Below are positions 11,106-63,148 of a stretch of DNA of 64,000 bases, one piece after another; position 1 is the stretch's first letter, and each line of letters starts with the position of its first letter. The DNA is taken from assembly GCA_965203315.1 (NCBI GenBank), contig CBDBCE010000004.1, positions 256,001 to 320,000 on the forward strand, written 5' to 3'. The stretch comes from Nitrosopumilus sp. (lineage in GTDB: Archaea; Thermoproteota; Nitrososphaeria; Nitrososphaerales; Nitrosopumilaceae). The notes under the pieces are model-generated. The model saw only the letters and a program-made list of their open reading frames with translations, made no database searches and had not been told where the DNA came from. A program made the translations under genes and the position numbers.

Positions 11106-11544
11106 ACTATAATATAATCACGATAGCATATAAGATCAATGCTGTCTCTCAAACCTGATACCAAGTATGTGGTATCTGATCTGTGCGCCTCTCCGCAACG
11201 TTATTACGCGATTTTGAGAGTTATGTACTGTCATGTCCCCGGCTGTGCATTGCAGAACCAACCATGATGAAAGATTGATGACTTTATCTAAACATCAATT
11301 TTGACACATGCTTTGCGATCTGCAATGAGAATTGTGTGAACACTTGTCAACATAGAATGTAACAAACCTCTGGTGATGTTCTCTTCGATTTATGTGGAAT
11401 GCATTTTACAAGACTTGTCCGTTCCTATGAAGTCTTGTACTTTTTTTCTGTCAAAATTCTATCTCAAGTAAACCGAAGAGATTCTCTCAAAATGCTCTCA
11501 TGCTTGTTACTTGAACTGGTGCCGTACTAGAACCTACAAGATAC

Positions 11545-11577
11545 TTTTATAAGATACGGGGGGGGGGGGAGTAATTA
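11545..11577 (+). promoter_or_regulatory. Archaeal promoter with G12 tract between TATA box and TTG start
   Basis: TTTTATAA 11545-11552, G12 11558-11569, TTG 11578. Confidence 0.75.
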
Positions 11578-14500
11578 TTGTATAAGCGTCATCTGATCCC
11601 TGTTCTAGCTTTGGCAATAATTGTACCATTCTTACTAGTTGATCTAGATGATGCGTTTGGGGCGGTTATACCTCCATACAACTATTTGAATCCTGGTTTA
11701 AATCCCTCAACAGGTTGGCGTACTGATACGGCGAGCTTTTCATCTCCTCTTACCATACATGACAACAATAGTGCAACTCTTGTTATTAGTACTAGTTTTA
11801 ATCACATTAGACATGGCGCCGCCTATCAACCTGAAGGAGACATCACCATAGATAAAGGAACAAAGATACTACCAAACTCTGTATTTGCATCAATTGGTTG
11901 TACAGTCCAGTTTGCAGTGACCAACGTTGGTTCCAATCCATCTAATGATGATTCCCTTCATGACTATGCTACTCTACCTACTAACGTATATAGCAACATC
12001 TGGACTAATTTACCTGGCAGTGATGTTAAAGTAATAGGTGTAGACTTTAAAGAATACACCTCTAGTACTTGTGACGTCTCTGCTCTTACCACTAAAAACT
12101 CTACCAATGAACCACTACTCACAGACAAATCGATGAGAGTTACCCTTTATGGTCAGGCTGGCAAAAAGGCGTTCTTTACCTCACACTTTGAAAATATCAC
12201 CACGGCTCAACTGATCCCAGAATGTACTAGTGCAAACTTTGACAACACTACCAAGCAACTCAAAGGACAAACTCGTATGTGTTATGGTACCTATGTTGAT
12301 AGTACTACTAATAATTCTATCTTACCTTATAAGCGTGGTAATCATCTGATTATAATAACAACACAGATTGGAGAGTATGGTGCTACTAGTACAATTCTTC
12401 CACCAGATACACTGCCTATACTACCGCCTAGTGGTTTTCCTACTTCACTCATTACTAATGACGTCCCATACCTGAAAAGCAGTCCTAATATAGACAATGG
12501 AACAATTGGTGCTACCAGTGGCAATCGATATCAGATAGACGGTACTCAGGCCGGTGCACTGGTTAAGGCAGGTGATATCCATATACAAGGTACGACAACG
12601 ATACTCTCAAATCCGATACTCTTAGGTCTCTCAACAACATGCGCTTTTAATATAATGTCACTTCCTACTCTAAGTACTGCTTTTCCGACCAACGCACAAC
12701 CGGCAGGCAACGCAACCAATCCGGCTTCGATGACATTTCGTGGACAATCCAGTTGTGCAAACTGGTCTCCTACACATCCAATGATAACAGACAAAGAGAT
12801 GCGAATCACTCTAACCAATAAAACGGGCAGTAAGGCATGGTATGCATCACCTCGTCAGGGTATAACCGAAGCGCAACCAATTCCTGCGTGTACTACAGAT
12901 ATGATATATCTGAACAATGGTACCCTCAAAGGCAACACAAAGATGTGTTATGGTGTGTATAGTGATCATTTAATAATTATCACAAAGAGATTCTTTGGAC
13001 AATATGGATCTGCTGACACAATCACAACTCCACAGAATCCGGTAGATCTTGATTCAGACAAACCTATGCAAACTATGCCTCCATCCACTACATCACTAGC
13101 TCCTCCACAAAACTTTGCAAGTCTGTCGCCACAGTTTACGGCATTTGGGATCATCCCACGTGGCGCAAGCATAGGTGGCGATATCAACGTGAACACTGAT
13201 ACTCGATTTGGTCCACCAAACAGCAAAGGTGACGTGGTGATACAGGCCAATACAAAGATAAAGCCTGCAGCTCTATTTGACACTGACGTCGGAAGACCTT
13301 GCATCAGCGTCAACTTTAGAGATCCCGCAATCTTGATAACTCCTCCTACTGTTCTACGAGGTGCAGATGCAATGGGATTTGACTTGTCAACATCTACTGG
13401 TCTGACTCCTGTATGTACGATAAATCCTACAGCATTCAACGGAACTCTATTAACAGACAAAGAGCTGCGTATAACACTATATCCAAACGCAACCACCGAT
13501 ACAATAGCGCCGCACTTTTTCTCACAAGAACAAGGTAACTCTGCCACCAAGCCGATACCTCTGTGTACTAGTACGAACATGCACGCCAACCAGACTCTGA
13601 TAGGCGACACAGAGATGTGCTATGGCACACACGACAACAACACCATAATCATATCAAAGCGCATTGGCATATACAGTGCAAATGCACCAACAGGAACTAT
13701 TGTTCCAGATCCTGTATCTACACCAGTAAATACGGTCAACGGTACAATATCGTTCACAGTATCAGGCGCATGGACACCAGGTGAGCAAGCTACAGTATCA
13801 ATATCTGATGCAGATCAAAACAAGAACAGTGCAGCAGACGACGATCAAACTATATCGAATGCAAAATCTAGAATTCCAACACTGATAACAGGTGATCCAC
13901 ATACGCTAAAAGATGGCGATACAGATCAAATATACGCATATACGGGACGAGGCAGCACATGGATACCATTCCTTCAAGATCCCAGTCAAAGCTACATACA
14001 TCAATTAAACTATAAAACAGATGACAGTCATCGTGGTATAATATCGTGGACTGGTGGTGATCTATCAAACAACGCAGAGACTCTATCACTTGGAGGTGCT
14101 GGAGTAGGACCAATGCTTGCGATACCTCTGGGTACGCTAGGTGATCTCCGCGACTCCATAAACGACGACGACCTCAACGGTACAGGCAACTTTACAGGAC
14201 GAAACCTGATAAACTATGACTTTGGTTCACTGACCCCAAACATCCGAAAGAGTCAACTTACCATAGTGAATAGTGCTGGAACTTATTTGTACAGTGGCGT
14301 ATTTGCAAGTGATGATACGAGATTCCCAAACCATAATGCTAAATCTGACATACTAGATATTACCGGTTTTACAGTTGCGCATCAGACTGGTACCGACTAT
14401 GTACTGACAGGCCCTGATCTATTATCTCAACCTAATGTAAACGACAACAGTCAAGTTTTATGGATAATAGAGTTCAGCGAGAGTCTAGTGCTTACAGAAG

Positions 14501-17500
14501 GTATAGAATATCCAATCGTACTGGACTTTATCTCGTACGGATTCTATGGTGATGGTGACAGTACAGATGAGCGTATAGCCAACCAGATAATACGAATACA
14601 AGCAGAAGAGACCGGTGTAAACACTGGTACATTTACAGGTACGATATCATATATCCTGATAAATCAACTAGACACTATAGTACACGATGACATTTACTGG
14701 AATTCAGGACAGACTCAGATACTAGAGACTCCTTACATCTATGAAACAATCACACCAACAGGCAAGGATGCAACATTTATCGCATTTGAAGGCATGACAG
14801 CTCAAGTAAACTATACAGATATCAACTCTAACGGTGTCGATACCGTACTGTCTGCTCAGCAAGATATCATTACAAACACAGGTACGGTATCTCTCAATAA
14901 TACAAGCTATGATACAGGCGATGCAGTAACTATAACACTCGTCGATCCCGATCTAGACAGAGATACTAGCACAGCTGACGTCTATAATGTATTTCAGGAT
15001 AGTACAGATCCCGATAGAGATCTAGTAGGCAAGAACGCACAGGGTTCACAAGAGACTCTACTGTCTGGCAGATCGTTGGGAATGTTACTCGAGGTAACAC
15101 TAAATGGCACAAAATGGCAGTCTGGTACGTGTACTTTATCTGGTGGTACACCAAACGGACTAGGCGGTACAACCTTTGCATTACAAGAGACTGGCCCCAA
15201 TACAGGTACCTTTACGGGTACATTCTATGTACCGGCCCAGTTTTGTGATGGTGCTGATACCGTATATACAAACGGTACAAATATCGGTGTAACATATCTA
15301 GACTTTAGAAATGCTACCGGTAGTATCGTCACAGCTAGTGATACAGCTAGTATCGCTGCAGCTGTGACCACTCCAACTCCCCATGTGACTCCGCCCCCAA
15401 TCACAATTCCTAATAATCTATTAACAATACCGCCACTAACCAATTCGAGCAGTTCTGCTGGAATGAATTTTGATTCAGACACAGAACACGATGGTTCGAT
15501 ATACTATGATGGCGACACTAGGAGATACACAGACGACAGTGGCAACGACGCCACTGCTGATCTCTATCTGGCACGAGGTACTGAAACACTACCACGTGCT
15601 ATGTTTGAAGGCACTGGTGATTATCAGTGTACTGGAAATTTTGAACGTGTTAAATTCCTCGACAAAAAACGTGTTCCAGGCTTTGCTATCCCAGATAATG
15701 TAACTCCTACTAAAAAGGGTAAACTAGCTGCATATGGACTAGATTTTTACAACAAGAGTTCAACAATATCGTGCTCACCAAATCCTGAAGCCGTCTCTGA
15801 TCAAACACTGATAACCGACACTGCACTGCGAATCACCATATATGGCAAGGCAGACAAAAAGCCTATCTACTTTTCACCGCGTGACGGAATACTCAAGGCT
15901 CAACCAATTCCAATGTGTACAACTGATATGATCGACACGAGCAACAACAATGCTCTCAAGGGTAACAATACTGTATGTTATGGCGTACACGGTAATGACA
16001 TGGTCATCGTTACAAAACGACTGACTGGGTTTTATGGTGCAGCAGACAGCGTTACAACACCCGCAAATCCGATAGACCTCAATCCAACTACAGTCATTAA
16101 TATCGATCCAAACATATTGTCTATACCATCAATAATCGAAACGAAACGTGCTGGTCAAGCGACTTTTGAGTCAAATTCAGCTAATGACGGCAAGATATTC
16201 TATGCCGGACCCTCTTCTAGACTCACCGATCATGGTACAAAACCAACTGGTGATATCTATCTCGTACAAGATACTACAACACTCGTACATCCGCTGTTCA
16301 GAGGCGCCGGCGACTATAGATGTTTTGCAAGTTTAGCACATGTTGTAACTCTCAACACAACCATGGTCCCAGGCTTTGCCCTGCCAGATAATATCGTTCC
16401 TAAGACACCTCTGCGTAGTGTATATGCATACGGACTAGACTTTTTTAACAGCATTAGTAATAAAACAGCAAAATGTTCACCCGATCCCGAGGCTGTACAT
16501 AGCCAACCACTAGTAACCGACAAAGAGATGCGATATACGATATATGGCAAGGCAGACAAAAAACCCTACTACTTTTCTCCACGTGACGGAATAACAGAGG
16601 CTCAACCAATTCCAATGTGTACCACCGATATGATCGACACAAGCAATAATGCTCTCAAGGGTAACAATACTGTATGTTTTGGTAGAAACGGCACAGATAT
16701 GGTCATTATCACAAAACGACTGACTGGGTTTTATGGCGTAGCAGACAGCGTTACAACACCTACAGATCCAACAGATCTCAATGCCGCTATACCTGTTGTA
16801 TCTCTTACCAATTCCATAACCGGTAAAATACAAACACACGAATACTATACTGAAAAGATAAACAGTACATCTCTGATAGAATATCCCAACCCTGTCTTTT
16901 TGTACAACACATTACCTCTTTGCGAGGACTCTGTTCATGGCACACATCAGACAATACAAATGACAACAAAAGGAGATATTTTGTTCAAGTATGCTCTAAA
17001 CGGAGTACAGTTTGACGGCAGGCTATTCCTGACTCTGACAGATCATACTCCCAAAAAGACCATATCGCTAGACTCTAACTTTGTCCAACAGCGTGGTAAT
17101 TGGTACAACTATAACAGTACTCTTCCAAAGAGTATACTGGATCAGTTTGGCAACTTTACCAGCATAAACGCCAGACTGTTTGTGACCAATGACACCATAC
17201 CAAACAAAAACATATTCAGCAACAGCTCTACAGGTTCACCTCTATACTATAAAAGCCAGAAAAAGGCTATCATGGAGTTGCCAGATGCTGCAGATACAGT
17301 AACCTTTGTACCTGGTAAAGTACCAGGTGTCCGTGGTAATGTACATGTTCCACAAGGTGATACCGTACCACTAACCGCAGAGATACTGTGCCAGTTTGGT
17401 CATATACAACCATCCCCATCAGCTCAGGTATTTGATCTAGGTATATCTGCAGATAACGCAACAAACGGTCTCGAGATAAAGTATGAATTTACATCAAAGA

Positions 17501-20500
17501 CGTTCTATCAAGGTGCAAAGGAACAGAAACCGACAAAGTTCTTTTGGATTGCAACCGACTCTGACGGCAACTCTGTCAACGGTGATACAACTCGTACCAT
17601 AACCAATTCATACAACTTTGTCATTCCTCAAAGTACATCTGGTACATATGATATAGTGATATACGGCTCTGATGCTGAACGTACACTAATAGGTACACAT
17701 GCAGGTTCGTACACGTTTGCAGCTGCATCTGCACCAGTGACCAACCCTCCATCAACATCTGGTATACTAACGATACCCAAGCCTGACAACCTTGAGATAT
17801 CTACTGATTATGATCTACAGACCATAACCACTACTAATGGTGATCGGCAGACTACGTTCATGGTCCGAGATGAAGCCAATGAAAAGTATGTATTTACTCC
17901 TGTGGCATTTGAGAACGAACCTAATGGCAAGGTAGGTGATGTGTACATACCCACTCCTACACGTACAGAGTCCAACCCAATATTTTTCAACTCTGTAACC
18001 AACTCTTATGCTAATACTGACTGTGATGTAGATGTCTGGTCTATAACAGAGCTGGCCAAGACTACTAACGTTCCATCGTTTACCATACCAAACAACATAA
18101 ACACAACTAGTCCAAACGGTATAATCGGACTGGCACTCGACTTTGGTCCTGTTGGCGGTAGTTGTGCTGTAGATATGGACGTCAAATCACCAAATCCTAT
18201 ATTCACAGAGAAAGAGATGAGATTCACAATATACGACACAACCAAACAACCGTACTATTTCTCACCTCGTGACGATATCACCACAGCTGTCCAGATACCT
18301 GCATGTACCACCGATATGATCCATCTGAACAACCAATCTCTCAAAGGTGACACAAAGATGTGTTATGGCAAGAACGGTGACGATATCGTAATTATAACAA
18401 AGAGAGTTGCATTCTATGCAGTCGCGGGTGTACCACGGGACTCAACTCCGACCAAGGTTATAGATCCAACTCTACTAACAATACCACCACTAGACAACTC
18501 TGTAGTTTTTGGTGCTCTGAACTTTAATTCAGACAGCGCTAATGACGGTCGTCTATTTAGTTCACATCCTGATAATCGATACAGAGATGCTGACAGTACA
18601 GGTGATCTATACATAAAACAGGATACTCGTACACTCGTAACCAAGCTATTCACCGGTGTTGGTGATTATAGTTGTAGTGCAGGAGTTGATAATGTCCCCA
18701 CTTTGATCAATGACAACCGTGTTCCAAATCTTGCAATACCAAATAACATTAACCCCAATACTGCTGAAAGTATAGTTACAGTTGGATTGGACTTTTACAA
18801 CGGCTCTGATAGGACATCATCATGTTCACCAGATATAGAGGCTACTTCTGACCAACCGCTAATAACCGACAAGGATATGAGAATCACCATATACAACAAT
18901 ATAGACAAAAAGCCATACTATTTCTCACCACGTGACGGAATACTAGAGGCACAACCAATTCCTGCATGTACAACTGATATAGTAGATATAAACAACAACC
19001 ATGCCCTCAAAAGTAACAATTCAATGTGTTATGGCGTAAATGGAACTGGAAATACTGCATCTATTGTTATAGTTACAAAACATTTGACTGGATTTTATGG
19101 CGTTGCAGACTCTATCACTCCCCCAACAAATCCTATGAAATTTCAGTATGGCGGAGCAACTGTACCTCCTGTAGATAAAAGTACACTGGTATCAATACCG
19201 CCAATAAGCAGCTTGACACCCAAATTTGGTACTATGCAATTTAGATCAGACACTAGTAATGACGGTCAGATATATCAGGCGCAGCCCACCGCTAGATACT
19301 TCAATTCTGATAAAAAATATGATATCTATATGGAACAGAATGCGCGTACACTCGTAACCGATCTATTCACAGGTGTTGATGATCTTAGTTGCCTTGCAAT
19401 GCTTACTCATATTCCAGGCTTGATCACTGACAACAAGGTTCCAAATCTTGCAGCTCCTTCCAACATACAACCTAGACTTGTTAGCAGTCTAGATGCAGTT
19501 GGACTAGACTTTTACAACGCTACTGGTTCATCATCATGTTTACCAAATATAGAGACTCCTTCTAAACAACCGCTAGTACTCGACAAGGATATGCGAATCA
19601 CCCTTCCTGACACCGGCAACAGTCTCTACTATTTCTCACCACGTGACGGAATAACCGAGGCTCAACCAATTCCTGCATGTACATCTGATATAATCGATAC
19701 AGACAACAACAATGCTCTCAAAGATGGCAATACAATGTGTTACGGCGTAAATGTAACCACAGGTCCGCAATCTTTTGTTGTAATCACAAAGTGTCTGACT
19801 GGATTTTATGGTACAACTGATACACTCTTTGTACCTACAAGATCTGTAAATCCTAACAACATGTGTGGAAGCGGTGACCCTAAAGACAGCGATGATTATC
19901 TGGCCACTGCACCAACCTTTGGCGTCTCACAACTCACAGGTGAACAGCTGGTAACATGTGGTTATAAAATGGACGACACTTGCCGTGATATCACTGCATA
20001 TCATGTCCAGTACGAACGCGACACGATACAAACTAACACGACACACACATTTGCAATAAAGACACTGGCACCAAACATGTTGCACAATGTTATACTGGCA
20101 TTTAGTGTACCAAATGTGGGCGCTCCAGTGAGTACAGCAGAAGCATACATCTCTGTACATCTTGGAATAAACTATAGCGAACCGTCACACCACTATATCA
20201 CAGATGTTACTATACATGACCCAAACAACATCATCGACTATGACACACAAAACACAACAGTATCTGCTGCATCTTGTTCTGGTACCGAGCTACAATGTAC
20301 GCAAATAACACTCCCAGACGTACTATTCCGTGATGTAATGAACCATGAACCATTTGCAATACAAGTAACTGATACTCTACGATTCACATCCATAAACTAC
20401 ATGAACGAAGGTGTCTTTGTTAAAGGTACATCACTAAACGCACCACCAACTGCACAGCCAGGACTCACACTATCTGGTGACGATGGTCGACCAATAAACT

Positions 20501-20835: not shown

Positions 20836-20950
20836 GTTTGTATTCGAGATATGTGATATCAAAAATTGTTCATCATTCATCTGACGTGACATTTACTTTG
20901 TATTGACTATTCAATTTGCTTCTTTTGGCATTTTTAGATAACGTCTCAGC

Positions 20951-21208
20951 GGATCTTTTCGATTTATGTGGAGTGGCGTTTTGTAAGGTTTTTTATAATA
21001 GACTGTATGCGTATTATTAAGAGTACCCATACCAATCATCAAATATGACAACAATGAATCAATTCGCCTCTAGAAATCATGCCTGTGTTTTATTGTACCT
21101 TAAAATGTGCATATGATAAGAAATACGCATATAGTCTAATCTTTCATTATAGAATCTCGTAGTGCTTTTTCTGCAACAATTCGTATCTCATGTAAACCGG
21201 AAAGATCC
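20951..21208. mobile_element. MITE family B copy interrupted by a nested MITE
   Basis: Left half GGATCTTTTCGATTTATGTGG.. and right half ..GTAAACCGGAAAGATCC rejoin into a normal B copy once 21000-21137 is removed. Confidence 0.7.
21000..21137. mobile_element. MITE family C (nested)
   Basis: TIRs AGACTGTATGCGTATT and AATACGCATATAGTCT (1 mismatch), flanked by a short AAT (or TA) duplication. Confidence 0.7.
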
Positions 21209-21335
21209 GTAGACTGTGCTAATTATGTACAAAAAATCGTTGACCGGGAGGTATTCTGAGAAACGTATTGGGTTTAATTATTCTGCAAATCAGAATAAAT
21301 TGATGGCATGTATTACTGATATTATGATAAAAAAC

Positions 21336-21509
21336 ATGGAGTGTTCAACCGATCAAGAATTAGCATTACCTGCAATAATATTTGAAGGTGAAGATGCAAA
21401 ATTTTTTGATGAATATAACAAGAGGCCTAGGACAGAACATGAAAAGGCATTGTTAGTAGAAGCAGATAGAATATATGCTTCTATGTGCAACGTAGATGGA
21501 AACGATTAA
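21336..21509 (+). CDS. Small putative antitoxin-like protein
   Basis: PAIIFEGEDAKFFDEY resembles small antitoxins found before GNAT toxins; overlaps the next ORF. Confidence 0.4.
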   Translation: MECSTDQELALPAIIFEGEDAKFFDEYNKRPRTEHEKALLVEADRIYASMCNVDGND

Positions 21510-21619
21510 TACGATTTCAAAAACGCGCTGACATAAGAGCGTACAAACCCGATGACAAAATCTCAAGTTTGGACTTCACAGTAGACGGCTCGGATCCACT
21601 ACATGTAGATGCTTTTTTT
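21485..21619 (+). pseudogene. Truncated gene, possibly the N-terminus of a GNAT toxin, cut by MITE-A
   Basis: ..DDKISSLDF..DPLHVDAFF stops where the MITE-A TIR begins; the remainder of the ORF is MITE sequence. Confidence 0.4.
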
Positions 21620-21796
21620 GGTTCTGTTCAATTGACGGGGGTTGAGATCGTGATGACGTTATCTCAAAGAACGTACAATATGAGACTCAAAACAGCAACA
21701 ATTTGCGATAGCCCATATGAGGCCGTTTCCATATTTTGCAAAATTTTTCGAGAATTTTATGCAGAAAATGCCAACCACCATTAATTGAACAGATCC
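21620..21796. mobile_element. MITE family A (IS6-like ends)
   Basis: GGTTCTGTTCAATTG ... AATTGAACAGATCC; reverse orientation relative to the copies at 35902, 38362 and 41300. Confidence 0.85.
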
Positions 21797-21983
21797 AAAA
21801 AGGACGACTTTGATATTCTATCTAGTGTCTCTTCGGTGTACGTGGGATAAAACTTTACAGAAAAAAATACTATGGAATTCTGTAGGGAAAATTTAGTGAC
21901 AAGTCTTGTAAAATACCATCCCACGTAAACCAAAAAGATCCTCCGGTGATGATATTTAAATCAGGCAAGTTGTTGTATATATT

Positions 21984-41299: not shown

Positions 41300-41474
41300 G
41301 ATTCTATTCAATTGACGGGGATGGGCATTCTCTGCACAAAATTCTTGAAAAATTTTGCAAATATGGAAAAGGTCTCATATTATCTATCGTAAATTGCTAC
41401 TGTTTTGAGTCACATATTGTGCATTCTTTGGGATAACGTCACAGCGATTTCAACCCCGTAAATTGAACAGAACC
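41300..41474. mobile_element. MITE family A
   Basis: GATTCTATTCAATTGACGGGG ... AATTGAACAGAACC; closely similar to and co-oriented with the 38362 copy. Confidence 0.88.
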
Positions 41475-46472: not shown

Positions 46473-46474
46473 GT

Positions 46475-47179: not shown

Positions 47180-47182
47180 TGT

Positions 47183-52222: not shown

Positions 52223-52233
52223 GGGGGGGGGGG
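52223..52233 (+). repeat. G11 homopolymer upstream of mod
   Basis: G11 ends 9 nt before TTG 52243. Confidence 0.9.
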
Positions 52234-52242
52234 CGATTCTAA

Positions 52243-54852
52243 TTGGCAGAACGCAAAAAACCTTCCAAAAAGAAAGTCGAACACTATACACATCCAAATG
52301 AAAAACGACCAAACAATCCCCAAGTTGGACTAGTCACTCCAGATACTGATCCAGATCAGCCGCGCAAAAGATATTCCTTTGATCCTAGAATTGATCCACA
52401 ACTACAATGGTCTGGAAAACAAGAAAATTCCGAGTTTGACGTGGATACTGTTTCATTACATGTTCATGAGAGAATCGATCCAATCACAATTCTTGAAAAA
52501 GTGTTGAAGAAAGAACCACATCAACAACAGTCCATATTTGCATACTTTGAAACACCCGAAAATAATCCTCCTTTACGGGAAGCCATTGAATTTTACAAGC
52601 ATGAGCATGGTTGGGCTAATCGGTTGATTGCAGGCGACTCATTAATTGTCATGAATTCTCTGCTAGAGAAAGAAGGAATGGTGGGGAAAGTTCAAATGAT
52701 CTATATAGATCCACCGTATGGAATCAAATATGGTTCTAACTTTCAACCCTTTGTCAACAAGTATGATGTCAAAGATGGTAAAGATGAAGATTTGACTTCA
52801 GAACCTGAAACACTCAAAGCATTTAGAGACACATGGGAATTAGGCATACATTCCTATCTATCCTATTTGAGACAGAGACTTTTGCTTGTAAGAGAACTCT
52901 TAACTGACTCTGGAAGTTGTTTTGTTCAGATTTCGGACGAAAATGTACATCTAGTAAGAGTGATAATGGACGAAATATTTGGTAGAAGTAATTTTATAAG
53001 CTTGATCACATTTAGACGAAAACCAAATTCAATGGGAGCAAAAATAATGGGTTCAGTTTCAGACCATATAATTTGGTATGCTAAGGATAAAAAACACATT
53101 AAATCACATAAACTGTTTGAGAGCCGTAATCCAGAATTAGGCAAAACATGGAGTTTTATAGAACTATCTAATGGTATAAGAAGGAAATTAACAAAAGAAG
53201 AAATAGAAAAACCAAATTCAATTCCACCTATGAGTAAAATTTTCACGTCGTATAAATTAGCACCATCTGCATTTAGTCAGGAATACACATTTCCTGTTAT
53301 GTATAAAGACAAAAAATATTTACCACCATACACAGGTGGGGGAAGATGCTGGAAAACTACCAAGGAAGGGATGGATGCACTGATAAAGAAAGATAGAGTA
53401 TTGCCATCTGGAGATACACTAAGATTTGTAGGGTATTGGAATGATTTTCCATATGTTGAGATAGATAATTTATGGTATAAAATATCTACAACAGGTAACA
53501 AAATATATGTTGTTGAGACATCTTCTAATACTATTTCACGATGTATATTGATGACTACAGATCCTGGAGATTTAGTTTTAGACATTACATGTGGAAGTGG
53601 AACTACAGCATACACGTCAGAAAAATTAGGAAGGCGTTGGATTACCTGTGATACTTCACGACTTGCAATTACACTAGCTAAACAACGCCTAATGACAGGA
53701 AAATTTGACTATTATGAAATTATGGAACCTACAGAAGGTGTGTCTTCCGGTTTTAAATATGATACGGCACCACACATTACACTTGGAACAATAGCAAATA
53801 ATGAACCACCACTTGAGGAAATTCTTTATGACAAACCAAAAATAGATAAATCAAAAGTACGAATAACTGGTCCATTTACAGTCGAGGCGGTACCATCACC
53901 CACTGTCAAATCGTTAGATGTCTTATCACATGATGGCAATTCACAAAATGTACAACACAGTAACAACTCACCACAAGAGTATTGGCGAGACGAACTGCTC
54001 AAGACAGGAATTAGAGGAAAGAATAAACAAAAGATCGAATTTACTCATGTCGAATCTCATCCTGCAACAAAATGGCTACACGCAGATGCAGAGACAAAAG
54101 AAGACAAACCAAAACGAGTAATGATATCATTTGGACCAGAACATGCGCCACTAGAACAACGTCAGGTCGCATCAGCTATCGAAGAAGCACAATCCATAGT
54201 CCCAAAACCAAAGATGATAATCTTTGCCGCAATGCAGTTTGATCCTGAAGCTGCAAAAGATATCGACGAATTAAAATGGCCAGGAGTCACAGTTCTCAAG
54301 GTGGAGATGAATAAAGATCTCTTGACTAAGGATCTAAAGAAGAAACGTTCCACCAATGAATCCTTTTGGTTAGTGGGGCAACCCGATGTTGAACTAGATC
54401 TAGTCAATGATGTAGATGATGGTGGTAAAAACAGTAGCAAAAAAGATAGTAAAAAGTCTAGTAAAAACGGTAAAGCGAATAGCAAGTCTAGCCACAAAGA
54501 TGACGATGAATCAAAAAGATACATAATTCGTGTTAATGGCTTTGACTATTACAATACAAATACAGACGAAATAGAGTCTGGGGATTCATCAAAGATTGCA
54601 ATGTGGATGCTCGATACTGACTATGATGGACGCAGTGTATATCCGCAACAAGTATTCTTTCCAATGGAAGGAGATAAAGGAGGATGGAGCAAACTAGCAA
54701 AGACACTACAAGCACAAATAGACGATGAATTAATCTCAAAGTATCATGGAACTGTATCGATTCCATTTACAGCAGGACCAAACAAGAGAGCAGCCGTCAA
54801 GATCATCGACGACCGAGGCATAGAGTCACTAAAGATCATACAGTTGGAATAA
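52243..54852 (+). CDS. mod: Type III-like RM N6-adenine methyltransferase (Mod, beta class)
   Basis: YIDPPY precedes LDITCGSGTT; variable TRD region between them; C-terminal AVKIIDDRG.E. Confidence 0.9.
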   Translation: MAERKKPSKKKVEHYTHPNEKRPNNPQVGLVTPDTDPDQPRKRYSFDPRIDPQLQWSGKQENSEFDVDTVSLHVHERIDPITILEKVLKKEPHQQQSIFAYFETPENNPPLREAIEFYKHEHGWANRLIAGDSLIVMNSLLEKEGMVGKVQMIYIDPPYGIKYGSNFQPFVNKYDVKDGKDEDLTSEPETLKAFRDTWELGIHSYLSYLRQRLLLVRELLTDSGSCFVQISDENVHLVRVIMDEIFGRSNFISLITFRRKPNSMGAKIMGSVSDHIIWYAKDKKHIKSHKLFESRNPELGKTWSFIELSNGIRRKLTKEEIEKPNSIPPMSKIFTSYKLAPSAFSQEYTFPVMYKDKKYLPPYTGGGRCWKTTKEGMDALIKKDRVLPSGDTLRFVGYWNDFPYVEIDNLWYKISTTGNKIYVVETSSNTISRCILMTTDPGDLVLDITCGSGTTAYTSEKLGRRWITCDTSRLAITLAKQRLMTGKFDYYEIMEPTEGVSSGFKYDTAPHITLGTIANNEPPLEEILYDKPKIDKSKVRITGPFTVEAVPSPTVKSLDVLSHDGNSQNVQHSNNSPQEYWRDELLKTGIRGKNKQKIEFTHVESHPATKWLHADAETKEDKPKRVMISFGPEHAPLEQRQVASAIEEAQSIVPKPKMIIFAAMQFDPEAAKDIDELKWPGVTVLKVEMNKDLLTKDLKKKRSTNESFWLVGQPDVELDLVNDVDDGGKNSSKKDSKKSSKNGKANSKSSHKDDDESKRYIIRVNGFDYYNTNTDEIESGDSSKIAMWMLDTDYDGRSVYPQQVFFPMEGDKGGWSKLAKTLQAQIDDELISKYHGTVSIPFTAGPNKRAAVKIIDDRGIESLKIIQLE

Positions 54853-57701
54853 TGACCGGCATAGACAATCTAATCATCTGCAATCCGTATAAAGTGCCAT
54901 CAAAGCACTGGAGATATGATCGTACAAAACGCAAGTTTGATCTAGTACCCGGCAGACGTCCAGCTGGATTTTTGATTGCATCCCAAGACAGTAAATCATT
55001 TGATGATCCTGGTGAATTTAAAGAACTGGGACTAGTAAACAATATTCGTGATAGAGTAGACTCGTGGCGAGAGAGAGGCTACCCAAACATCACCGGTATC
55101 ACAAAACAACTCTTGGAGTTTTGGAACGATGAAACAAAACGTGAAGATAGACTATTCTTTTGTCAACTCGAAGCAATAGAGACTCTGATCTGGTTGGTCG
55201 AAGGTCCAGACTCTGACAAACAAGGCATAGACGTTCCATCAGATGGAGGAGAATTTCAGAGACTATGTTGCAAGATGGCGACTGGTACAGGTAAAACAAT
55301 CGTGATGGCAATGTTGATTGCATGGCAGATACTCAACAAGATCACCTATCCAAGAGATACGAGATTCTCAAAGAATGTATTGATCATGGCGCCAGGTCTG
55401 ACTGTAAAGTCCCGACTACAAGTCTTGTATCCAACAGATCCAAACAACTTTTACGAACAATTTAACCTAGTTCCAGAGTCTCTACTGGATAGACTATACC
55501 GTGGAAACCTCATTATCCACAACTGGCATACATTGATGCCAGAGACAGACGCACCTAGAAGTGTAGTAAAGCTGGGCAAAGAGAGTAACACTGTATTTTC
55601 AAAAAGAATACTGAACCACGATCTAAAGAACATCCTAGTTATCAACGATGAGGCACACCATGCATATCGCGCAAGTACAGATCAAGCAAAAAAGATATCC
55701 AACAGAGATCTAGAACGAGACAAACGTTGGATCGAAGGTCTAGACAAGATACACAACGCAAGAAATATTGTACACTGTTTTGATTTCTCTGCAACGCCTT
55801 TTATTCCGTCAGGCAAGAATGTCAGTGAAGATACTCTGTTTGAATGGATAGTCTCTGACTTTTCACTAAACGATGCAATAGAGTCAGGACTTACCAAGAC
55901 ACCGCGAATAGCGATTCGTGACGACAGTGGCAAATTTACCAAAGAGTATCGTTCTAGATTCTATCACATATACAAAGACGACGAGGTAAAACCAGATCTC
56001 AACCGTAACTCTAAGCCACACGAAGAGCTACCAGATCTCGTATCAAACGCCTACAAGATTCTGGGTCAAGACTGGATAGAGACCAAAAAACTCTGGGATG
56101 AAAAGGGCTCCAAGATTCCTCCTGTAATGATCACAGTATGCAACAAGACAAACGCAGCTGCGCGAGTAACATACTCGTTTGAGAAGAATCGTTTTGATCT
56201 ACCAGAACTATCTGTGCCAGAGTATCTGCTACATATCGACTCGACAACGATAGACAAGGCCGAGTCAAAGAGTGCAATAGATATCAGTTCCACAAAACTA
56301 GAAGACAACTTGCGTGTAAAGGTCGACACAGTTGGTAAAGAGGGCGAGGTAGGTGAGCAGATACGAAATATCGTTGCTGTACAGATGCTCTCTGAAGGCT
56401 GGGATGCACGAAACGTCACACATATCATGGGTCTACGAGCATTCTCTAGCCAACTATTATGTGAACAGGTGGTGGGACGAGGTCTCAGGAGAACGTCATA
56501 CGAGATCGATCCAGAGACTCAACTCTTCTCACCCGAGTATGTGAACGTCTTTGGTGTACCATTTACGTTTCTGCCGCACGAGGGTGGTGACGGTACACCT
56601 CCGCCTCCAACCGCCCCAACCACATCTATATTTCCAGATCCAGAAAAGATACAGCACGAGATATCGTGGCCTAACATCGAACGAATCGATATCGATTACA
56701 CAACCAAACTTGAAGTAGATTGGAGCAAGACTAGTAACATCGAACTATACAGTAGTGGTACAGCTACTAGTGTTGATGTGGCAGATGTGATAGAAGGAAA
56801 ACCTCACACAGACAAGATGACAAATATCAGTCTACATAAACAAGAGCGATTGCAGAGGATCATCTTTCTAGCTGCAAAACATGTCTATGAAGAGATGAGA
56901 CCAAACTGGAAAGGTAACAAAGAGCTACTCTTGATTCAGATCGTAAAGCTAGTCGAAGAGTTTATTCATCTAGACAAGATCATCGTGACCGATGTGATAC
57001 ACGATGAGAAACGTAAAAGGATGACGATACTATTCAATATGCAAAAGATAGTGTCACATGTATGCAAAAGCATCAAAGACAACAACATCGATTCAAGACG
57101 TATTCACTTGAACTCCAAAAAACCAATAAAATCTACGTCTGATATGCGTCCTTGGTCTACAAAAAAGCCTGCCGAGTATACTACAAAATCACACATCAAC
57201 ATGGCAGTATACGACTCTACATGGGAGATGAGCACAGGACAAGAGCTAGAGAGAAACAAGAGTGTGGTATCTTGGGTTCGAAACGCTAGGATCGGCTTTA
57301 ACATAAAGTATCTCTTCAACGGCATAACACATGACTATTATCCAGATTTCATGATCAGATTAAAGAACAACATTACACTAGTTTTAGAGATAAAGGGAAA
57401 AGATGATGCACAGAATAAAGAGAAACGCAAGTATCTTGCAGAGTGGATCGATATTGTAAACGCAACTGGTGTATATGGAACATGGTCGTGGGACGTAGCG
57501 TTTAGTCCAGGTGAGGTTCGTGGAATCATTGCCAAACATAGTTCGTCTAGCGTATCTGCAAACGAGTATACTAGGTGCCCAAAGTGTCACAAATCAGCAG
57601 AGTCTAGACAAGATATCGAGCGAGATTTTGGATTTCGAAACATTGACGGAATCATCAGACCGCAATCATGGTGCAGGTCTTGCAGACGATCAAATGTATA
57701 G
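54852..57701 (+). CDS. res: Type III-like restriction endonuclease/helicase (Res)
   Basis: MATGTGKT, DEAHH, SAT, EGWDA, QVVGRGLR, YPDF..LEIKG nuclease motif; overlaps the mod stop. Confidence 0.9.
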   Translation: MTGIDNLIICNPYKVPSKHWRYDRTKRKFDLVPGRRPAGFLIASQDSKSFDDPGEFKELGLVNNIRDRVDSWRERGYPNITGITKQLLEFWNDETKREDRLFFCQLEAIETLIWLVEGPDSDKQGIDVPSDGGEFQRLCCKMATGTGKTIVMAMLIAWQILNKITYPRDTRFSKNVLIMAPGLTVKSRLQVLYPTDPNNFYEQFNLVPESLLDRLYRGNLIIHNWHTLMPETDAPRSVVKLGKESNTVFSKRILNHDLKNILVINDEAHHAYRASTDQAKKISNRDLERDKRWIEGLDKIHNARNIVHCFDFSATPFIPSGKNVSEDTLFEWIVSDFSLNDAIESGLTKTPRIAIRDDSGKFTKEYRSRFYHIYKDDEVKPDLNRNSKPHEELPDLVSNAYKILGQDWIETKKLWDEKGSKIPPVMITVCNKTNAAARVTYSFEKNRFDLPELSVPEYLLHIDSTTIDKAESKSAIDISSTKLEDNLRVKVDTVGKEGEVGEQIRNIVAVQMLSEGWDARNVTHIMGLRAFSSQLLCEQVVGRGLRRTSYEIDPETQLFSPEYVNVFGVPFTFLPHEGGDGTPPPPTAPTTSIFPDPEKIQHEISWPNIERIDIDYTTKLEVDWSKTSNIELYSSGTATSVDVADVIEGKPHTDKMTNISLHKQERLQRIIFLAAKHVYEEMRPNWKGNKELLLIQIVKLVEEFIHLDKIIVTDVIHDEKRKRMTILFNMQKIVSHVCKSIKDNNIDSRRIHLNSKKPIKSTSDMRPWSTKKPAEYTTKSHINMAVYDSTWEMSTGQELERNKSVVSWVRNARIGFNIKYLFNGITHDYYPDFMIRLKNNITLVLEIKGKDDAQNKEKRKYLAEWIDIVNATGVYGTWSWDVAFSPGEVRGIIAKHSSSSVSANEYTRCPKCHKSAESRQDIERDFGFRNIDGIIRPQSWCRSCRRSNV

Positions 57702-57908
57702 TGCGAGTCTTTTTAACTTGCGGTGTACAGATCTCTCCGATTTACATGGGGTGGCATTTTACAAGACTTGTCCGCCCCTATCAAGACTTGTACTTTTTTT
57801 TTCTGTTAAAATTCTATCTCAAACCGAAGGGATTCTCTCAAAGCGTTTTTGTGTTTGTTTCTTGAATTGATGCCGTACCAGAACAGTGTACTAGAACCTA
57901 CAAGATAC

Positions 57909-57942
57909 TTTTATAAGATACATGGGGGGGGGGGAGTAATTA
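57909..57942 (+). promoter_or_regulatory. Archaeal promoter with G11 tract between TATA box and TTG start
   Basis: TTTTATAA 57909-57916, G11 57924-57934, TTG 57943; homologous to 11545-11577. Confidence 0.75.
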
Positions 57943-60900
57943 TTGAGTAAGTGTCATCTGTTCTTTCTGCTATCCTTGATAGCAGTTGTACCGTTTTTGA
58001 TATTCTATGCACCTGATGCATATGCAGCACCCATTACCATTCCTGAACCCTCTGGTTATCCTACTACTACTAACCTAGATTATTTTGGCTACAATGAAAT
58101 ATACAATAATCGTAGCGCGATTTTAGATTCAGAACTCTTTAGTCCAGAAAACAACAATGACAAGGGAGAGATATACATACAATCAAACACACGTGTACTG
58201 CCCCATCCACAATTTACACCTGGTGAACGTCTTATTTCTGTATTCGATGTTCTGACTAACAATCCTGCTAATATCACAAAGCCTAGTAATGTGGTTGGTA
58301 ATCACAACATTTTGCTAATTCACAGCACTGTTACTACTCCTCCAGGACCTCACACCTACTCTCGTATTCTTAGTGGTAACACTGGAACTGCACCTCTATT
58401 GCTTGATAAAGAGGTGCGAGTCTCGATCAACAGTACAGGGATCTCTTCTCCCAAACCCTTCTTCTTTTCTACCTTTGAGAATATAACTCAGGGGCATCCA
58501 ATACCTGAATGTAGTGCTACCAACTTTGACAGCTCTGCTCAAACTCTAAAAGATAACTACAAGATGTGTTTTGGCATTTTAAATGACTATGTTGTTGTAA
58601 TCACAAAACGCCTTGGACACTTTGGCGTAACGACCACACTGAATGCGCCTAGTACTCCTATAGATATACACGCTCGTACACTATCCATACCACCACTAAC
58701 CAACAAGGACCCGACTGGTACTGCTTTGGTATTTAGATCAGACATCCATAATGACGGTCAGGTATATGCTGCATATGATGCTCGAGCTAGAGTATCCAAT
58801 GTTCTTCCAACTAATTCTCCAGGTGATATTCATATACAGAGTGAAACTTTTACACTCGTAAACGATCTATTCAAGGGTACCGGTGCCTATTCTTGCAGTG
58901 CACATTTTGAGAGTGTTTCATCTATAAACGGACGTGGTACTTATGGTGATTCAAGGATTGAAATGCCAAATAACACATCTCCAGACACAACTGCTGCATA
59001 CGGGCTAGACTTTTACAACGATACTAGTAAAACAACACCGTGCTCACCAGATCCAGAAGCCACCTCTACTGAGCCACTGATAACCAACAAAGAGATACGC
59101 ATTACCATATACAGCGCGACAGACAAAAAACCATTCTACTTTTCACCACGTGACAATATAACCGACGCACAACCAATTCCTGCATGTACAACTGATATGA
59201 TCGACACAAGCAACAACAATGTTCTCAAAGGCGGCAATACTGTATGTTATGGTGTACACGGTAATGACGTGGTCATCATTACAAAACGACTGGTTGGGTT
59301 TTACGGTGCAGCCGACAGCGTCACCACACCTACAAATCCGGTAGACCTCAATCCTGTATCACAGACTCCGTCTCCCACGCCTATTGCTCCACCTGACCTT
59401 TCATCTCTACTAACAATACAACCACTAACTACCGCAAAACCACTTGGCGCTGCTATGCAATTTCTTTCAAACAGTAATACTGACGGTCAGATATATCACT
59501 TACCTAATACTCGAGCTGGTGTAGCCATCGCTTATCAAGGTGACATTTCTCCAGGTGATATTCATCTCCAGGGCAATATTTTCACACTCGTAACCGATCT
59601 ATTCAAGGGTGCTGGTGATTATTCTTGCTGGACACAATTTGAGCGTGTTTCAGGTATAAACACATACGGTAATTACGGTGATTCAGTGCTTGAGATGCCA
59701 AATAACACTTCTCCAAACGCTCAAGCATACGGACTAGACTTTTTTTCCGACGTTCGCAACAAAACAGCAAAATGTTCACCAGATCCAGAAGCTGTACATA
59801 GCCAACCACTAGTAACCGACAAAGAGATACGCATTACCATATACAACGCGACAGACAAATGGCCATTCTACTTTTCACCACGTGACAATATAACTACTGC
59901 TCAACTCATACCTGCATGTACAACTGGTATGATCGATACAAGCAACAACAATGCTCTCAAAGGCGACAATACTCTATGTTATGGTAGAAACGGCGCAGAC
60001 GTAGTCATTATAACAAAACGACTGACTGGGTTTTATGGCGTAGCAGACAGCGTTACAACACCTGCAGATCCAACAGATCTCAATGCCGCCATACCTGTTG
60101 TATCTCTTACCAATCCCGTAACCGGTAAAATACAAACACACGAATACTATACTGAAAAGATAAACAGTACATCTCTGATAGAATATCCCAACCCTGTCTT
60201 TTTGTACAACACATTACCTCTTTGCGAGGACTCTGTTCGTGGCACACATCAGACAATACAAATGACAACAAAAGGAGATATTTTGTTCAAGTATGCTCTA
60301 AATGGAGTACAATTTGACGGCAGGCTATTCCTGACTCTGACAGATCACACTCCCAAAAAGACCATATCGCTAGACTCTAACTTTGTCCAACAGCGTGGTC
60401 ATTGGTACAACTATAACAGTACTCTTCCAAAGAGTATACTGGATCAGTTTGGCAACTTTACCAGCATAAACGCCAGACTGTTTGTGACCAATGACACCAT
60501 ACCAAACAAAAACATATTCAGCAACAGCTCTACAGGTTCACCTCTATACTATAAAAGCCAGAAAAAGGCTATCATGGAGTTGCCAGATGCTGCAGATACA
60601 GTAACCTTTGTACCTGGTAAAGTACCAGGTGTCCGTGGCAATGTACATGTTCCACAGGGTGATACTGTACCACTAACCGCAGAGATACTGTGCCAGTTTG
60701 GTCATATACAACCATCTCCATCAGCTCAGGTATTTGATCTAGGTATATCTGCAGATAACGCAACAAACGGTCTCGAGATCAAGTATGAATTTACATCAAA
60801 GACGTTCTATCAAGGTGCAGAGGAACAGAAACCGACAAAGTTCTTTTGGATTGCAACCGACTCTGACGGCAACTCTGTCAACGGTGATACAACTCGTACC

Positions 60901-62718
60901 ATAACCAATTCATACAACTTTGTCATTCCTCAAAGTACATCCGGTACATATGATATAGTGATATACGGCTCTGATGCTGAACGTACACTAATAGGTACAC
61001 ATGCCGGTTCGTACACGTTTGCAGCTGCATCTGGTACCAACCAAACTGTACCCACACCTGTGACCAATCAAACCACGCCCACAACACATGGCCAAACACT
61101 AACGATAACCATACCAAATACCACTCCGTCTACTGCAACTATTGGTCTCAATACTCAGACAGCAAACGAAATAAAGTTCATCACTAGAGAGACCTCTCAA
61201 GGAAACGGTACTAGATATCATCACCACGATGATGATTCTGATGATACTAGGGCCGATATTACCATCCATTATAACACAAAGATAACCAGCAAAACATTCA
61301 ATGTCACATCAAATTCATTCTGTTATAATGCCGAATTGCAAGTTGGTGATGATATTACGATACCAAAGTTGAACAACTATACGGCATTGGCACTAGAGAT
61401 CACAGACTTTACTCCCAAATGTACCAACTATCCCAATATATCATTTGACGGTAAACTGGTATTAAACAAAGAGGTCTATATACGACTAAACAACACGGAC
61501 GGTCAAAACATCTTTTATCATGTGAACGGTACAAACGACATTGTACAGATACCAAAGTGTACCAGTACCAACTTTAATTCTACCAACAATACACTAAGGG
61601 GCAGTACGGAAATATGTTACGGCAAAGACGGTACAGACACCGTCATCGTATCCAAGATACTTGCAATCTTTGGAGCGACAACAGAGTCTATTCCAAAGCC
61701 TGGTACTTCGACTGGTCCAGGTACAACAAAACCTACGACTGGAGATGATCAAGACGACAAAGACTCTGACACATCAAGAGATCTAGCAAATGCGCCAACC
61801 TTTGGCATCTCACAACTCACGGGTGAACAGCTGGTAACATGTGGCTATAAAATGGACGACACTTGCCGTGATATTACGGGCTATCATGTCCAGTACGAAC
61901 GAGACACGATACAAACCAACACGACACACACATTTGCAATAAAGACACTAGCACCAAACATGTTGCACAACGTTATACTGGCATTTAGTGTACCAAACGT
62001 AGGCTCTCCAGTGAGTGCAGCAGAAGCATACATTTCTGTACATCTTGGAATAAACTATAGTGAACCATCACACCACTATATCACAGATGTTACTATACAC
62101 GATCCAAACAACATCATAGCCTATAATACACAAAACACAACAGTATCTGCTGCATCTTGTTCTGGTACCGAGCTACAATGTACGCAAATAACACTCCCAG
62201 ATGTGCTGTTCCGTGATATGATGAACCATGAACCATTTGCAATACAAGTAACTGATACTCTACGATTCACATCCATAAACTACATGAACGAAGGTGTCTT
62301 TGTCACTGGTACATCCCTAAACGCACCACCAACTGTACAACCAGGACTGACACTATCTAGTGACGATGGTAGACCAGTAAATCTCATTCTAGTCCGTACA
62401 GACAAGGTCTCTGATCTATGGGCAGACGCATTTGGCAACACGTGGAGTCGCAACTCGTTTGGCAACTTTGTCATTGTACAATATGCACCATACGCAGGTA
62501 CCACTCCCGTATGTACAGACATCAACGACAGAATATGTGCACCATTCAAGGCTAAACTCGACTGGCACAATCAAAAGATGATAGAACTACGTGACTCGTT
62601 ATACGATGCATACAAGACAAAGGCATACGCCGAGATCGACAACATCTTCACATACGAGTTTGGTGACATGGACTCTCGCACTAGAACACTGATCAATCTA
62701 GGCTGGCTAACCGAGTAG
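57943..62718 (+). CDS. Large secreted modular surface protein, 1591 aa (paralogue of 11578..20835)
   Basis: Signal peptide; about 4 copies of the same Cys module; near-identical ~1-kb internal block and C-terminal domain. Confidence 0.9.
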   Translation: MSKCHLFFLLSLIAVVPFLIFYAPDAYAAPITIPEPSGYPTTTNLDYFGYNEIYNNRSAILDSELFSPENNNDKGEIYIQSNTRVLPHPQFTPGERLISVFDVLTNNPANITKPSNVVGNHNILLIHSTVTTPPGPHTYSRILSGNTGTAPLLLDKEVRVSINSTGISSPKPFFFSTFENITQGHPIPECSATNFDSSAQTLKDNYKMCFGILNDYVVVITKRLGHFGVTTTLNAPSTPIDIHARTLSIPPLTNKDPTGTALVFRSDIHNDGQVYAAYDARARVSNVLPTNSPGDIHIQSETFTLVNDLFKGTGAYSCSAHFESVSSINGRGTYGDSRIEMPNNTSPDTTAAYGLDFYNDTSKTTPCSPDPEATSTEPLITNKEIRITIYSATDKKPFYFSPRDNITDAQPIPACTTDMIDTSNNNVLKGGNTVCYGVHGNDVVIITKRLVGFYGAADSVTTPTNPVDLNPVSQTPSPTPIAPPDLSSLLTIQPLTTAKPLGAAMQFLSNSNTDGQIYHLPNTRAGVAIAYQGDISPGDIHLQGNIFTLVTDLFKGAGDYSCWTQFERVSGINTYGNYGDSVLEMPNNTSPNAQAYGLDFFSDVRNKTAKCSPDPEAVHSQPLVTDKEIRITIYNATDKWPFYFSPRDNITTAQLIPACTTGMIDTSNNNALKGDNTLCYGRNGADVVIITKRLTGFYGVADSVTTPADPTDLNAAIPVVSLTNPVTGKIQTHEYYTEKINSTSLIEYPNPVFLYNTLPLCEDSVRGTHQTIQMTTKGDILFKYALNGVQFDGRLFLTLTDHTPKKTISLDSNFVQQRGHWYNYNSTLPKSILDQFGNFTSINARLFVTNDTIPNKNIFSNSSTGSPLYYKSQKKAIMELPDAADTVTFVPGKVPGVRGNVHVPQGDTVPLTAEILCQFGHIQPSPSAQVFDLGISADNATNGLEIKYEFTSKTFYQGAEEQKPTKFFWIATDSDGNSVNGDTTRTITNSYNFVIPQSTSGTYDIVIYGSDAERTLIGTHAGSYTFAAASGTNQTVPTPVTNQTTPTTHGQTLTITIPNTTPSTATIGLNTQTANEIKFITRETSQGNGTRYHHHDDDSDDTRADITIHYNTKITSKTFNVTSNSFCYNAELQVGDDITIPKLNNYTALALEITDFTPKCTNYPNISFDGKLVLNKEVYIRLNNTDGQNIFYHVNGTNDIVQIPKCTSTNFNSTNNTLRGSTEICYGKDGTDTVIVSKILAIFGATTESIPKPGTSTGPGTTKPTTGDDQDDKDSDTSRDLANAPTFGISQLTGEQLVTCGYKMDDTCRDITGYHVQYERDTIQTNTTHTFAIKTLAPNMLHNVILAFSVPNVGSPVSAAEAYISVHLGINYSEPSHHYITDVTIHDPNNIIAYNTQNTTVSAASCSGTELQCTQITLPDVLFRDMMNHEPFAIQVTDTLRFTSINYMNEGVFVTGTSLNAPPTVQPGLTLSSDDGRPVNLILVRTDKVSDLWADAFGNTWSRNSFGNFVIVQYAPYAGTTPVCTDINDRICAPFKAKLDWHNQKMIELRDSLYDAYKTKAYAEIDNIFTYEFGDMDSRTRTLINLGWLTE

Positions 62719-63148
62719 GTTTGTATTCTGGATGTGATGTATCAAGTACACCATTCATCTGGCATAATATTCAATTCCTGTTGATTATTAGGGTTGAGTT
62801 GAAATGTACACAAAAAGGACAACTTTGTGATATTCTATCTTGAGGATCTCTTCGATTTGTGTCGGATATGATTTTACAGAAAAAGTACTAGGATTCTATA
62901 AGGAAAATTTAGTGAGGACAGTCTTATAAAATCTAATCATACGTAAACCAAAAAGATCTGCGGTGGATGAAGCAATGATAAAAAATTAGAAAATTTACCT
63001 ATTTCAAGATCCAAATACCAAAACAGAGTTTTTAAAATGCCATCTCAACCAATCAACAAAATTTTTGGATAATTATGTACGATCTTGCATTCTACTACAA
63101 ATTACAAAGACTGATGGTATAGCATTTGAAAAGACTGATAACTAGTGA

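Follow-up and report, generated by a model that had tools for sequence, protein, structure and literature searches.

How do genes for giant secreted proteins come to lie between inverted copies of one and the same miniature inverted-repeat transposable element (MITE), and could they have moved there together with their promoters? The question is raised by a 64,000-nucleotide stretch of a Nitrosopumilus genome (the window, C5:256001-320000, where C1, C5 and C6 denote contigs), in which two such genes each occupy a block, here called cassette 1 and cassette 2, that begins and ends with a MITE. The genome comprises 2.47 Mb in 7 contigs at about 39% G+C, and because it encodes an archaeal AmoA, its source is an ammonia-oxidizing archaeon. 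We think it likely that each block was mobilized whole, by an enzyme acting in trans on the terminal repeats at its two outer ends and cutting the target with an 8-bp stagger.

The MITE in question is about 118 bp long, has terminal inverted repeats and contains no open reading frame (ORF). An nhmmer profile built from 44 full-length copies gives 260 matches in the 2.47 Mb; merged, these amount to 207 loci, of which 135 are full-length, and the window itself holds 6 copies of the family. Four form the ends of the cassettes: MITE A at the outer left of cassette 1 (11377-11484, minus strand; 70.0 bits against 23.9 on the other strand), MITE B at its outer right (21825-21941, plus strand; 96.8 against 33.5 bits), MITE C at the outer left of cassette 2 (57729-57835, minus strand; 59.4 bits) and MITE D at its outer right (62844-62959, plus strand; 80.3 bits). 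With A and C on the minus strand, B and D on the plus strand, and wide score margins, each giant gene is thus bracketed by an inverted pair, and positions and strands agree with the original prediction, made from the letters of the window alone, that both genes lie between inverted copies of one MITE. Bracketing alone is weak evidence, because MITEs are abundant (207 loci) and 19 of 1025 ORFs of at least 250 aa (1.9%) have one within 500 bp on both sides (8.3% upstream, 9.6% downstream).

Between the inner tip of the upstream MITE and the TTG start codon, cassettes 1 and 2 are colinear. This segment holds an upstream spacer and promoter in both: 11485-11577 (plus strand) in cassette 1, with the TATA box TTTATAA at 11546-11552 and a run of 12 G at 11558-11569, and 57836-57942 (plus strand) in cassette 2, with the TATA box at 57910-57916 and 11 G at 57924-57934. 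The genes that follow, both on the plus strand, encode proteins of 3085 aa (11578-20835) and 1591 aa (57943-62718), each with a TTG start, a signal peptide, repeated ~235-aa modules and, at the C terminus, a conserved domain of some 320 aa. A third cassette, C1:1060769-1065753, carries a related gene on the minus strand (C1:1061012-1065478) between an inverted MITE pair 131 and 157 bp from it. Full-length MITEs of the one family thus stand at both ends of three cassettes, at three loci with unrelated flanks. The post-stop spacer (20836-20950, plus strand, in cassette 1) is common to all three cassettes and to one further paralogue; the junction with the downstream MITE is likewise common to all three, and its motif is shared beside B and D. 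In the alignments, homology between cassettes stops at the outer MITE tips, which bears out the earlier claim that non-coding DNA is homologous inside the two cassettes and not outside them.

The end MITEs themselves carry part of this history. In a tree built from 134 full-length MITEs, A and C, which are 83% identical, group to the exclusion of all others (support 0.93), as do B, D and the MITE downstream in cassette 3 (0.47), among which B and the cassette 3 copy pair at 0.86; within each cassette, the two end MITEs belong to different lineages. From the colinearity and this grouping, cassettes 1 and 2 are copies of one composite, with which cassette 3 shares just the right end; its upstream MITE is another insertion than A and C.

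The flanks carry more weight than the bracketing. If such a block had inserted as a unit, one would expect target-site duplications outside the pair rather than around each MITE, and this is what we find. Cassette 1 is flanked by TCTGGTGA (11369-11376) and TCCGGTGA (21942-21949, directly 5' of the thiC TATA box), which match at 7/8 in register. The flanks of cassette 2, GCGGTGTA (57720-57727) and GCGGTGGA (62960-62967), match at 7/8 at offset -1, one extra base (57728) separating GCGGTGTA from MITE C. Those of cassette 3 are a perfect 8/8, GTTAAAAG/GTTAAAAG. No repeat of its own spans any single end MITE, whether A, B, C, D or the ends of cassette 3. The original prediction had seen these outer direct repeats and took the unit as 9 bp; the repeats are real, and the unit is 8 bp, since 8-bp duplications flank clean solo MITEs (such as ACTAGGAT and TGCCATTG) and the family's insertion sequence (IS) copies (such as GGATAGAG and GACGTGTA). 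Among 194,993 random unlinked left/right MITE end pairs, a match of at least 7/8 in register, the cassette 1 case, occurs in 0.069% (6.9e-4); allowing 9 offset combinations, the cassette 2 case, gives 0.42% (4.2e-3), and 8/8, the cassette 3 case, 0.0056% (5.6e-5). All three of the three bracketed cassettes carry such repeats, in contrast to solo MITEs, of which 8 in 123 retain one at 7/8 or better.

Relatives show what two of these loci look like without a cassette. Cassette 1 has on its left thiDN (9666-10964, minus strand; Pfam Phos_pyr_kin and ThiN) and on its right thiC (21984-23300, plus strand; ThiC_Rad_SAM, E 8.9e-177), with the conserved thiC TATA region TTTAAATCAGG directly after the right duplication. 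In 10 of 10 informative same-genus loci, thiDN and thiC are divergent neighbors some 750 bp apart with no giant gene between them; an eleventh locus runs off the end of its contig. Similarly, the VWA-domain and PLP-enzyme genes that lie 5.2 kb apart in this genome, on either side of cassette 3, are less than 100 bp apart and without a giant gene in 11 of 11 same-genus loci. Cassette 2 follows the type III restriction gene res (54852-57701, plus strand; Pfam ResIII), adjoining a mod/res pair, and lies in variable DNA; for its right neighbor, a TPR protein, the 30 other genomes of the genus that were searched gave no hit at E<=1e-30. The Pfam matches confirm the gene neighborhoods that had been proposed, cassette 1 between thiDN and thiC and cassette 2 after res.

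Contigs from public runs argue that cassette 1 is not a product of assembly. The junction of thiDN with MITE A is bridged by contigs of runs X1 and X2, from one study, and X4, from another, and that of MITE B with thiC by contigs of X1 and X2; because contigs of separate runs bridge the junctions, the structure is not an assembly artefact and is common to at least two sampled populations. Over 10800-22300, contigs of runs X1, X2, X4 and X5 contain, among the joints listed, none joining 11376 to 21942 and no circle junction, rare forms being invisible in contigs; the joints that are listed connect one repeat with another (MITE to MITE, module to module).

Which enzyme might have moved the cassettes? 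When all terminal-repeat occurrences in the genome are paired, sizes peak at about 1504 bp, and this peak leads to an IS. Six copies of 1500-1504 bp (C1:430005, C1:578127, C1:1017539, C1:1510541, C1:1924551 and C6:38562) each hold an intact ORF of 372 aa, 97-100% identical to one another. Their terminal repeats match those of the MITE; they are of the GGATCTTTTCG type, begin with GGATCTTTTCGATTTACG and have ends of 24-26 bp. The transposase combines an N-terminal SWIM zinc finger with a Pfam DDE_Tnp_IS240 domain (57.6 bits against a cut-off of 27), and its best NCBIfam match is transpos_IS6, at 98.5 bits below the cut-off of 125. The IS6 family is known for 8-bp duplications, GG tips and the building of compound transposons (PMC7986276); its typical members are about 800 bp long with cTGTt/caaa motifs in their terminal repeats (PMC7986276). 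The present IS shares the 8-bp target duplications and the GG tips, but at 1504 bp it is not of that length and it lacks the motifs. Because duplications and tips agree with the family while motifs, length and NCBIfam score do not, we take the autonomous partner to be, as far as its sequence features go, an IS6-like, zinc-finger-bearing, long variant. The IS6 review describes zinc-finger forms mainly from Clostridia and names just two IS6 MITEs (PMC7986276). Related transposases turn up in 27 of 61 genomes of the genus, the nearest foreign ones 41-43% identical. A BLAST search with the MITE in 60 other species of the genus gave no match except one of 32 nt (E 2.6e-4).

Two further observations concern the behavior of this IS and its MITEs. 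The inverted copies C1:430005-431508 and C1:578127-579630 have their flanking 8-mers swapped as reverse complements, which reads as the signature of an inversion of about 148 kb through recombination between the copies. Among 123 solo MITEs with both terminal repeats, just 8 keep an 8-bp duplication at 7/8 or better in register, the other 115 showing 6/8 or less; this retention is far below what sequence decay alone would lead one to expect, and it is consistent with a history of frequent rearrangement, replicative or recombinational, of the sort known from IS26-like elements. A solo MITE of the family, outside any cassette, lies at 7855-7973 (plus strand) in the window.

The same ends bound other cargo as well. 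We scanned all 368 end pairs that were neither MITE-sized nor IS-sized and found 6 with outer repeats at 7/8 or better, four at 8/8 and two at 7/8, the latter being the two cassettes of the window. At C1:807812-811826, a perfect outer CAACGAAT (8/8) flanks two MITEs that are almost identical and in direct orientation; they enclose an IS66-family transposase, an ORF of 204 aa with a weak UPF0175 match and an ORF of 158 aa, a structure expected of an IS6-type cointegrate or pseudo-compound transposon. C5:228724-230859 has 8/8 outer repeats around small uncharacterized ORFs, and at C1:1691504-1692961 a 204-aa ORF without a Pfam match lies inside an inverted MITE pair whose outer repeat, AGTCGATA (8/8), is out of register by 1 on either side. 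MITE-bounded mobilization is therefore not peculiar to the giant genes. Two elements of 3.0 kb, C1:1578002-1580995 and C5:248423-251424 (the latter just upstream of the window), were considered as composites and rejected, being IS copies interrupted by IS4/IS5-type IS (DDE_Tnp_1) that keep perfect 8-bp outer duplications. At C1:1917975-1923824, a candidate fourth cassette has a post-stop spacer 95% identical to that of cassette 1 over 115 bp. It was not counted, because the MITE-like elements near it occupy different positions and it showed no outer repeat.

We propose the following sequence of events. A cassette would begin with a MITE, continue through a promoter, the giant secreted-protein gene and a spacer, and close with another MITE in the opposite orientation; the transposase of the IS, acting in trans, would recognize its outer tips as those of a single long element. 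After a cut with an 8-bp stagger at the target, the whole block of 5-10.6 kb would be inserted and the 8 bp duplicated. Complete expression units would in this way have come to lie between thiDN and thiC (cassette 1), after the type III res (cassette 2) and, on contig 1, between the VWA and PLP-enzyme genes (cassette 3), and the cargo would later have been remodeled by nested MITE insertions and by recombination with other paralogues. The original prediction had suggested looking beyond the two cassettes for further ones, for an autonomous IS with matching terminal repeats and for empty sites. A third cassette with a perfect duplication turned up, six intact IS copies with 8-bp duplications lie outside the window, and the flanks of cassettes 1 and 3 adjoin each other in relatives, by synteny and not to the base. 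Its idea of a composite that spreads promoter-plus-gene units gains from all three and is largely borne out, though just 3 of 14 paralogues sit in such units.

Several observations weigh against block transposition and should be set out together. The genome contains 14 paralogues, found by their C-terminal domain and all sharing the promoter/signal-peptide region and the 3' end of the gene, and since just 3 are MITE-bounded in this way, transposition explains part of the spread of the family and not all of it. Four paralogues have no MITE within 1 kb on either side, while two others near MITEs (C5:81133 and C5:208508) have MITEs with duplications of their own, that is, independent insertions. 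MITEs are in any case common around the family: one lies within 500 bp of 5/14 paralogues upstream and 7/14 downstream, against 8.3% and 9.6% of the 1025 ORFs. The closest C-terminal domain to that of cassette 1 (97%) comes from an unbounded paralogue, and that of cassette 3, at 81-83%, ranks with the most distant; the similarity of the cargo thus does not follow the architecture, which indicates recombination among paralogues. Cassette 3 further has its upstream MITE about 60 bp further out, and that copy does not cluster with A and C; the clade uniting the three right-end MITEs is the one with support of just 0.47, and the match of the cassette 2 repeats depends on the 1-nt offset. The relatives with empty sites are other species, with ThiC 86-90% identical, so that these sites correspond by synteny and not base for base. 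From one cassette to another, the end MITEs have diverged by 16-22%, while the IS copies are 97-100% identical, and the cassette moves must therefore be old. Finally, canonical IS6 compound transposons have directly repeated ends and move via cointegrates (PMC7986276), a route that inverted ends do not fit.

This last point leads to the strongest of the alternatives, in which a circle or cointegrate carrying one MITE and the gene joined a resident solo MITE by a route like that of IS26, so that the outer repeat would be the old duplication of that MITE and the two outer ends would never have moved the block. An IS6-like transposase would suit such a route, as would the direct, nearly identical MITEs with their 8/8 outer repeat at C1:807812-811826, and the 115 of 123 solo MITEs at 6/8 or less are what replicative or recombinational histories might leave behind. 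But the route yields direct repeats, whereas the MITEs are inverted in cassettes 1, 2 and 3, and the two MITEs of each cassette come from different lineages and are not copies of one element. We consider it improbable as an account of the cassettes.

It is also possible that no block moved, and that MITEs inserted independently beside a recombining gene family, favoring long AT-rich intergenic DNA, with the outer repeats due to chance and the shared junctions due to gene conversion. MITEs are abundant and enriched near the paralogues, the neighboring MITEs at C5:81133 and C5:208508 have duplications of their own, and both the background of 19 bracketed ORFs among 1025 and the cargo similarities that do not track architecture sit well with this explanation. 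It would nevertheless need outer repeats at three of three bracketed paralogues, at chance levels of 6.9e-4, 4.2e-3 and 5.6e-5, around end MITEs that have no repeats of their own, and homology that ends exactly at the outer MITE tips by accident. Many matches at 7/8 or better around genes outside the family would favor it, but the 368-pair scan returned just 6 such pairs, namely four composites (the two window cassettes among them) and two interrupted IS, and we judge it slightly less probable still than the IS26-like route. Least plausible is that segmental duplication, or inversion by intramolecular replicative transposition, made the inverted pairs and no composite transposed: IS recombination has rearranged this genome, as the swapped flanks at C1:430005 and C1:578127 attest, but an inversion would place one copy of the duplication inside in reverse complement, whereas both copies are outside and direct here (in cassette 1 the inner flank TCTCAAAA does not match TCACCGGA, the reverse complement of the outer flank), and a segmental duplication should show neither target repeats nor exact stops at MITE tips in three places. 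Transposition of the whole block therefore stays our preferred reading.

How unusual would such elements be? MITE-bounded composites are known in bacteria, as TIME-COMPs (PMC4133298, PMC13367494), as the MITE-flanked class 1 integrons of Acinetobacter and as the MITE-297 pair on pA297-3 (PMC6382973). The bacterial systems and the cassettes are alike in that two non-autonomous MITEs bracket passenger genes and the block is mobilized in trans; they differ in that the bacterial composites are mostly on plasmids and carry resistance genes, while those described here are archaeal and chromosomal and carry a promoter and a giant secreted-protein gene, in three copies. The ends differ too, those of TIME-COMPs being derived from the Tn3 family and those of the cassettes matching an IS6-like IS with an 8-bp duplication. 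TIMEs duplicate 5 bp. With IS6/IS26 pseudo-compound transposons, the cassettes share DDE_Tnp_IS240, 8-bp duplications and GG tips, but the flanking copies of the IS26 type are direct, whereas ours are inverted in cassettes 1-3 and direct just at C1:807812-811826. Among archaea, a review of MITEs lists such elements just for Sulfolobus, Halobacterium, Haloquadratum, Desulfurococcus and a few others (PMC10969869), and our literature searches on MITEs or insertion sequences in ammonia-oxidizing archaea or Thaumarchaeota, which did not cover supplements, found no such element described. MITE-bounded gene shuttling is known in bacteria and little documented in archaea; the present case is archaeal, chromosomal and IS6-like, with inverted non-autonomous ends and a cargo of promoter and giant gene in three copies.

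The position of the insertions is of interest in its own right. Cassettes 1 and 3 lie 42-44 bp before the start codon of a neighbor (21942-21983 and L018:6754-6797), and their duplications abut that neighbor's TATA box, TTTAAAT for thiC and TTTTATAA for the PLP-enzyme gene. This promoter-proximal position suggests either a target preference or the survival of insertions that spared the promoter.

The downstream part of cassette 1 has been altered by about 0.9 kb of nested insertions that are absent from the other cassettes, among them a 258-bp long variant of the ~118-bp MITE family (20951-21208), which has no duplication of its own, and a MITE of a second family (21620-21800) with the tips GGTTCTGTTCAA. 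This second family, about 180 bp long, has tips that resemble classical IS6 ends, gives 84 BLAST matches in the genome, with a length of 150 nt or more in 62 cases, and is present in the window at 21620-21800, 35948-36070, 38357-38518 and 41303-41457. Elsewhere in the window, a tandem 78-bp unit in at least 6 copies, up to 99% identical, runs from 36858 to 37459 within the ORF 36791-37777, and residues 803-859 of the res protein (54852-57701) have a weak, sub-cut-off Pfam match to a TnsA-like endonuclease N-terminal domain. Contigs C1 and C5 are identical over bases 1-17739, by virtue of either a large exact repeat that breaks the assembly or an assembly duplication.

What do the cassettes carry? 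Neither giant protein has a Pfam match at E<=0.001. A structural model of the C-terminal 339 aa (pLDDT 68, mostly above 75 in the core of residues 30-260) consists of beta-sandwiches followed by helices, and matches in PDB just generic two-domain Ig-like chains at TM 0.2-0.3; the model supports a beta-sandwich, surface-protein-like fold, and no more than that. The C-terminal domain family is patchy in the genus, present in 14 of 61 genomes and multi-copy in few (18 matches in G017 and 13 in G043), and its open frames reach up to 6655 aa in multi-copy members of the genus (G017, G043, G007, G048). All 17 promoter loci of the giant-gene family in the genome, the two window sites at 11546-11580 and 57910-57945 and 15 elsewhere, have a G run between TTTATAA and the TTG start, 11-15 long in 16 and 7 in one. 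Because such G tracts are prone to slippage, the poly-G run may be a candidate phase-variation switch, or else a conserved promoter element. At the tract of cassette 1, no change in the length of the G run is among the indels listed; one X4 contig crosses it without gaps, and the contigs of X1 and X2 end at it.

Having found that giant genes of this archaeon probably moved as MITE-bounded blocks, the next question is what such movement would mean for the cell. In archaea, giant surface-protein genes frequently vary from strain to strain and are candidate players in virus or partner interactions. We find it tempting, if rather unlikely, to see the cassettes as mobile contingency loci, in which an IS6-like transposase moves whole expression units of surface proteins. 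Such a unit would join a TATA box and a G11-15 tract to the giant gene for an Ig-like secreted protein, read from a leaderless TTG start, and the surface-protein repertoire would be both multiplied by transposition and switched by poly-G slippage, an archaeal counterpart of the phase-variable surface-antigen families of bacteria that is spread by transposition. It would follow, too, that an IS6-type enzyme can move a segment with inverted ends without the canonical cointegrate route through direct repeats. Ammonia-oxidizing archaea are usually described as having compact, stable genomes; by contrast, this one holds at least 207 MITE copies, a second family with 84 matches, an active-looking IS and moved blocks of 5-10.6 kb. 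If MITE pairs shuttle promoter-plus-gene units, they would provide a concrete mechanism by which a family of giant surface proteins expands and relocates, and MITE-bounded composite transposition would extend from the resistance plasmids of bacteria to the chromosomes of archaea.

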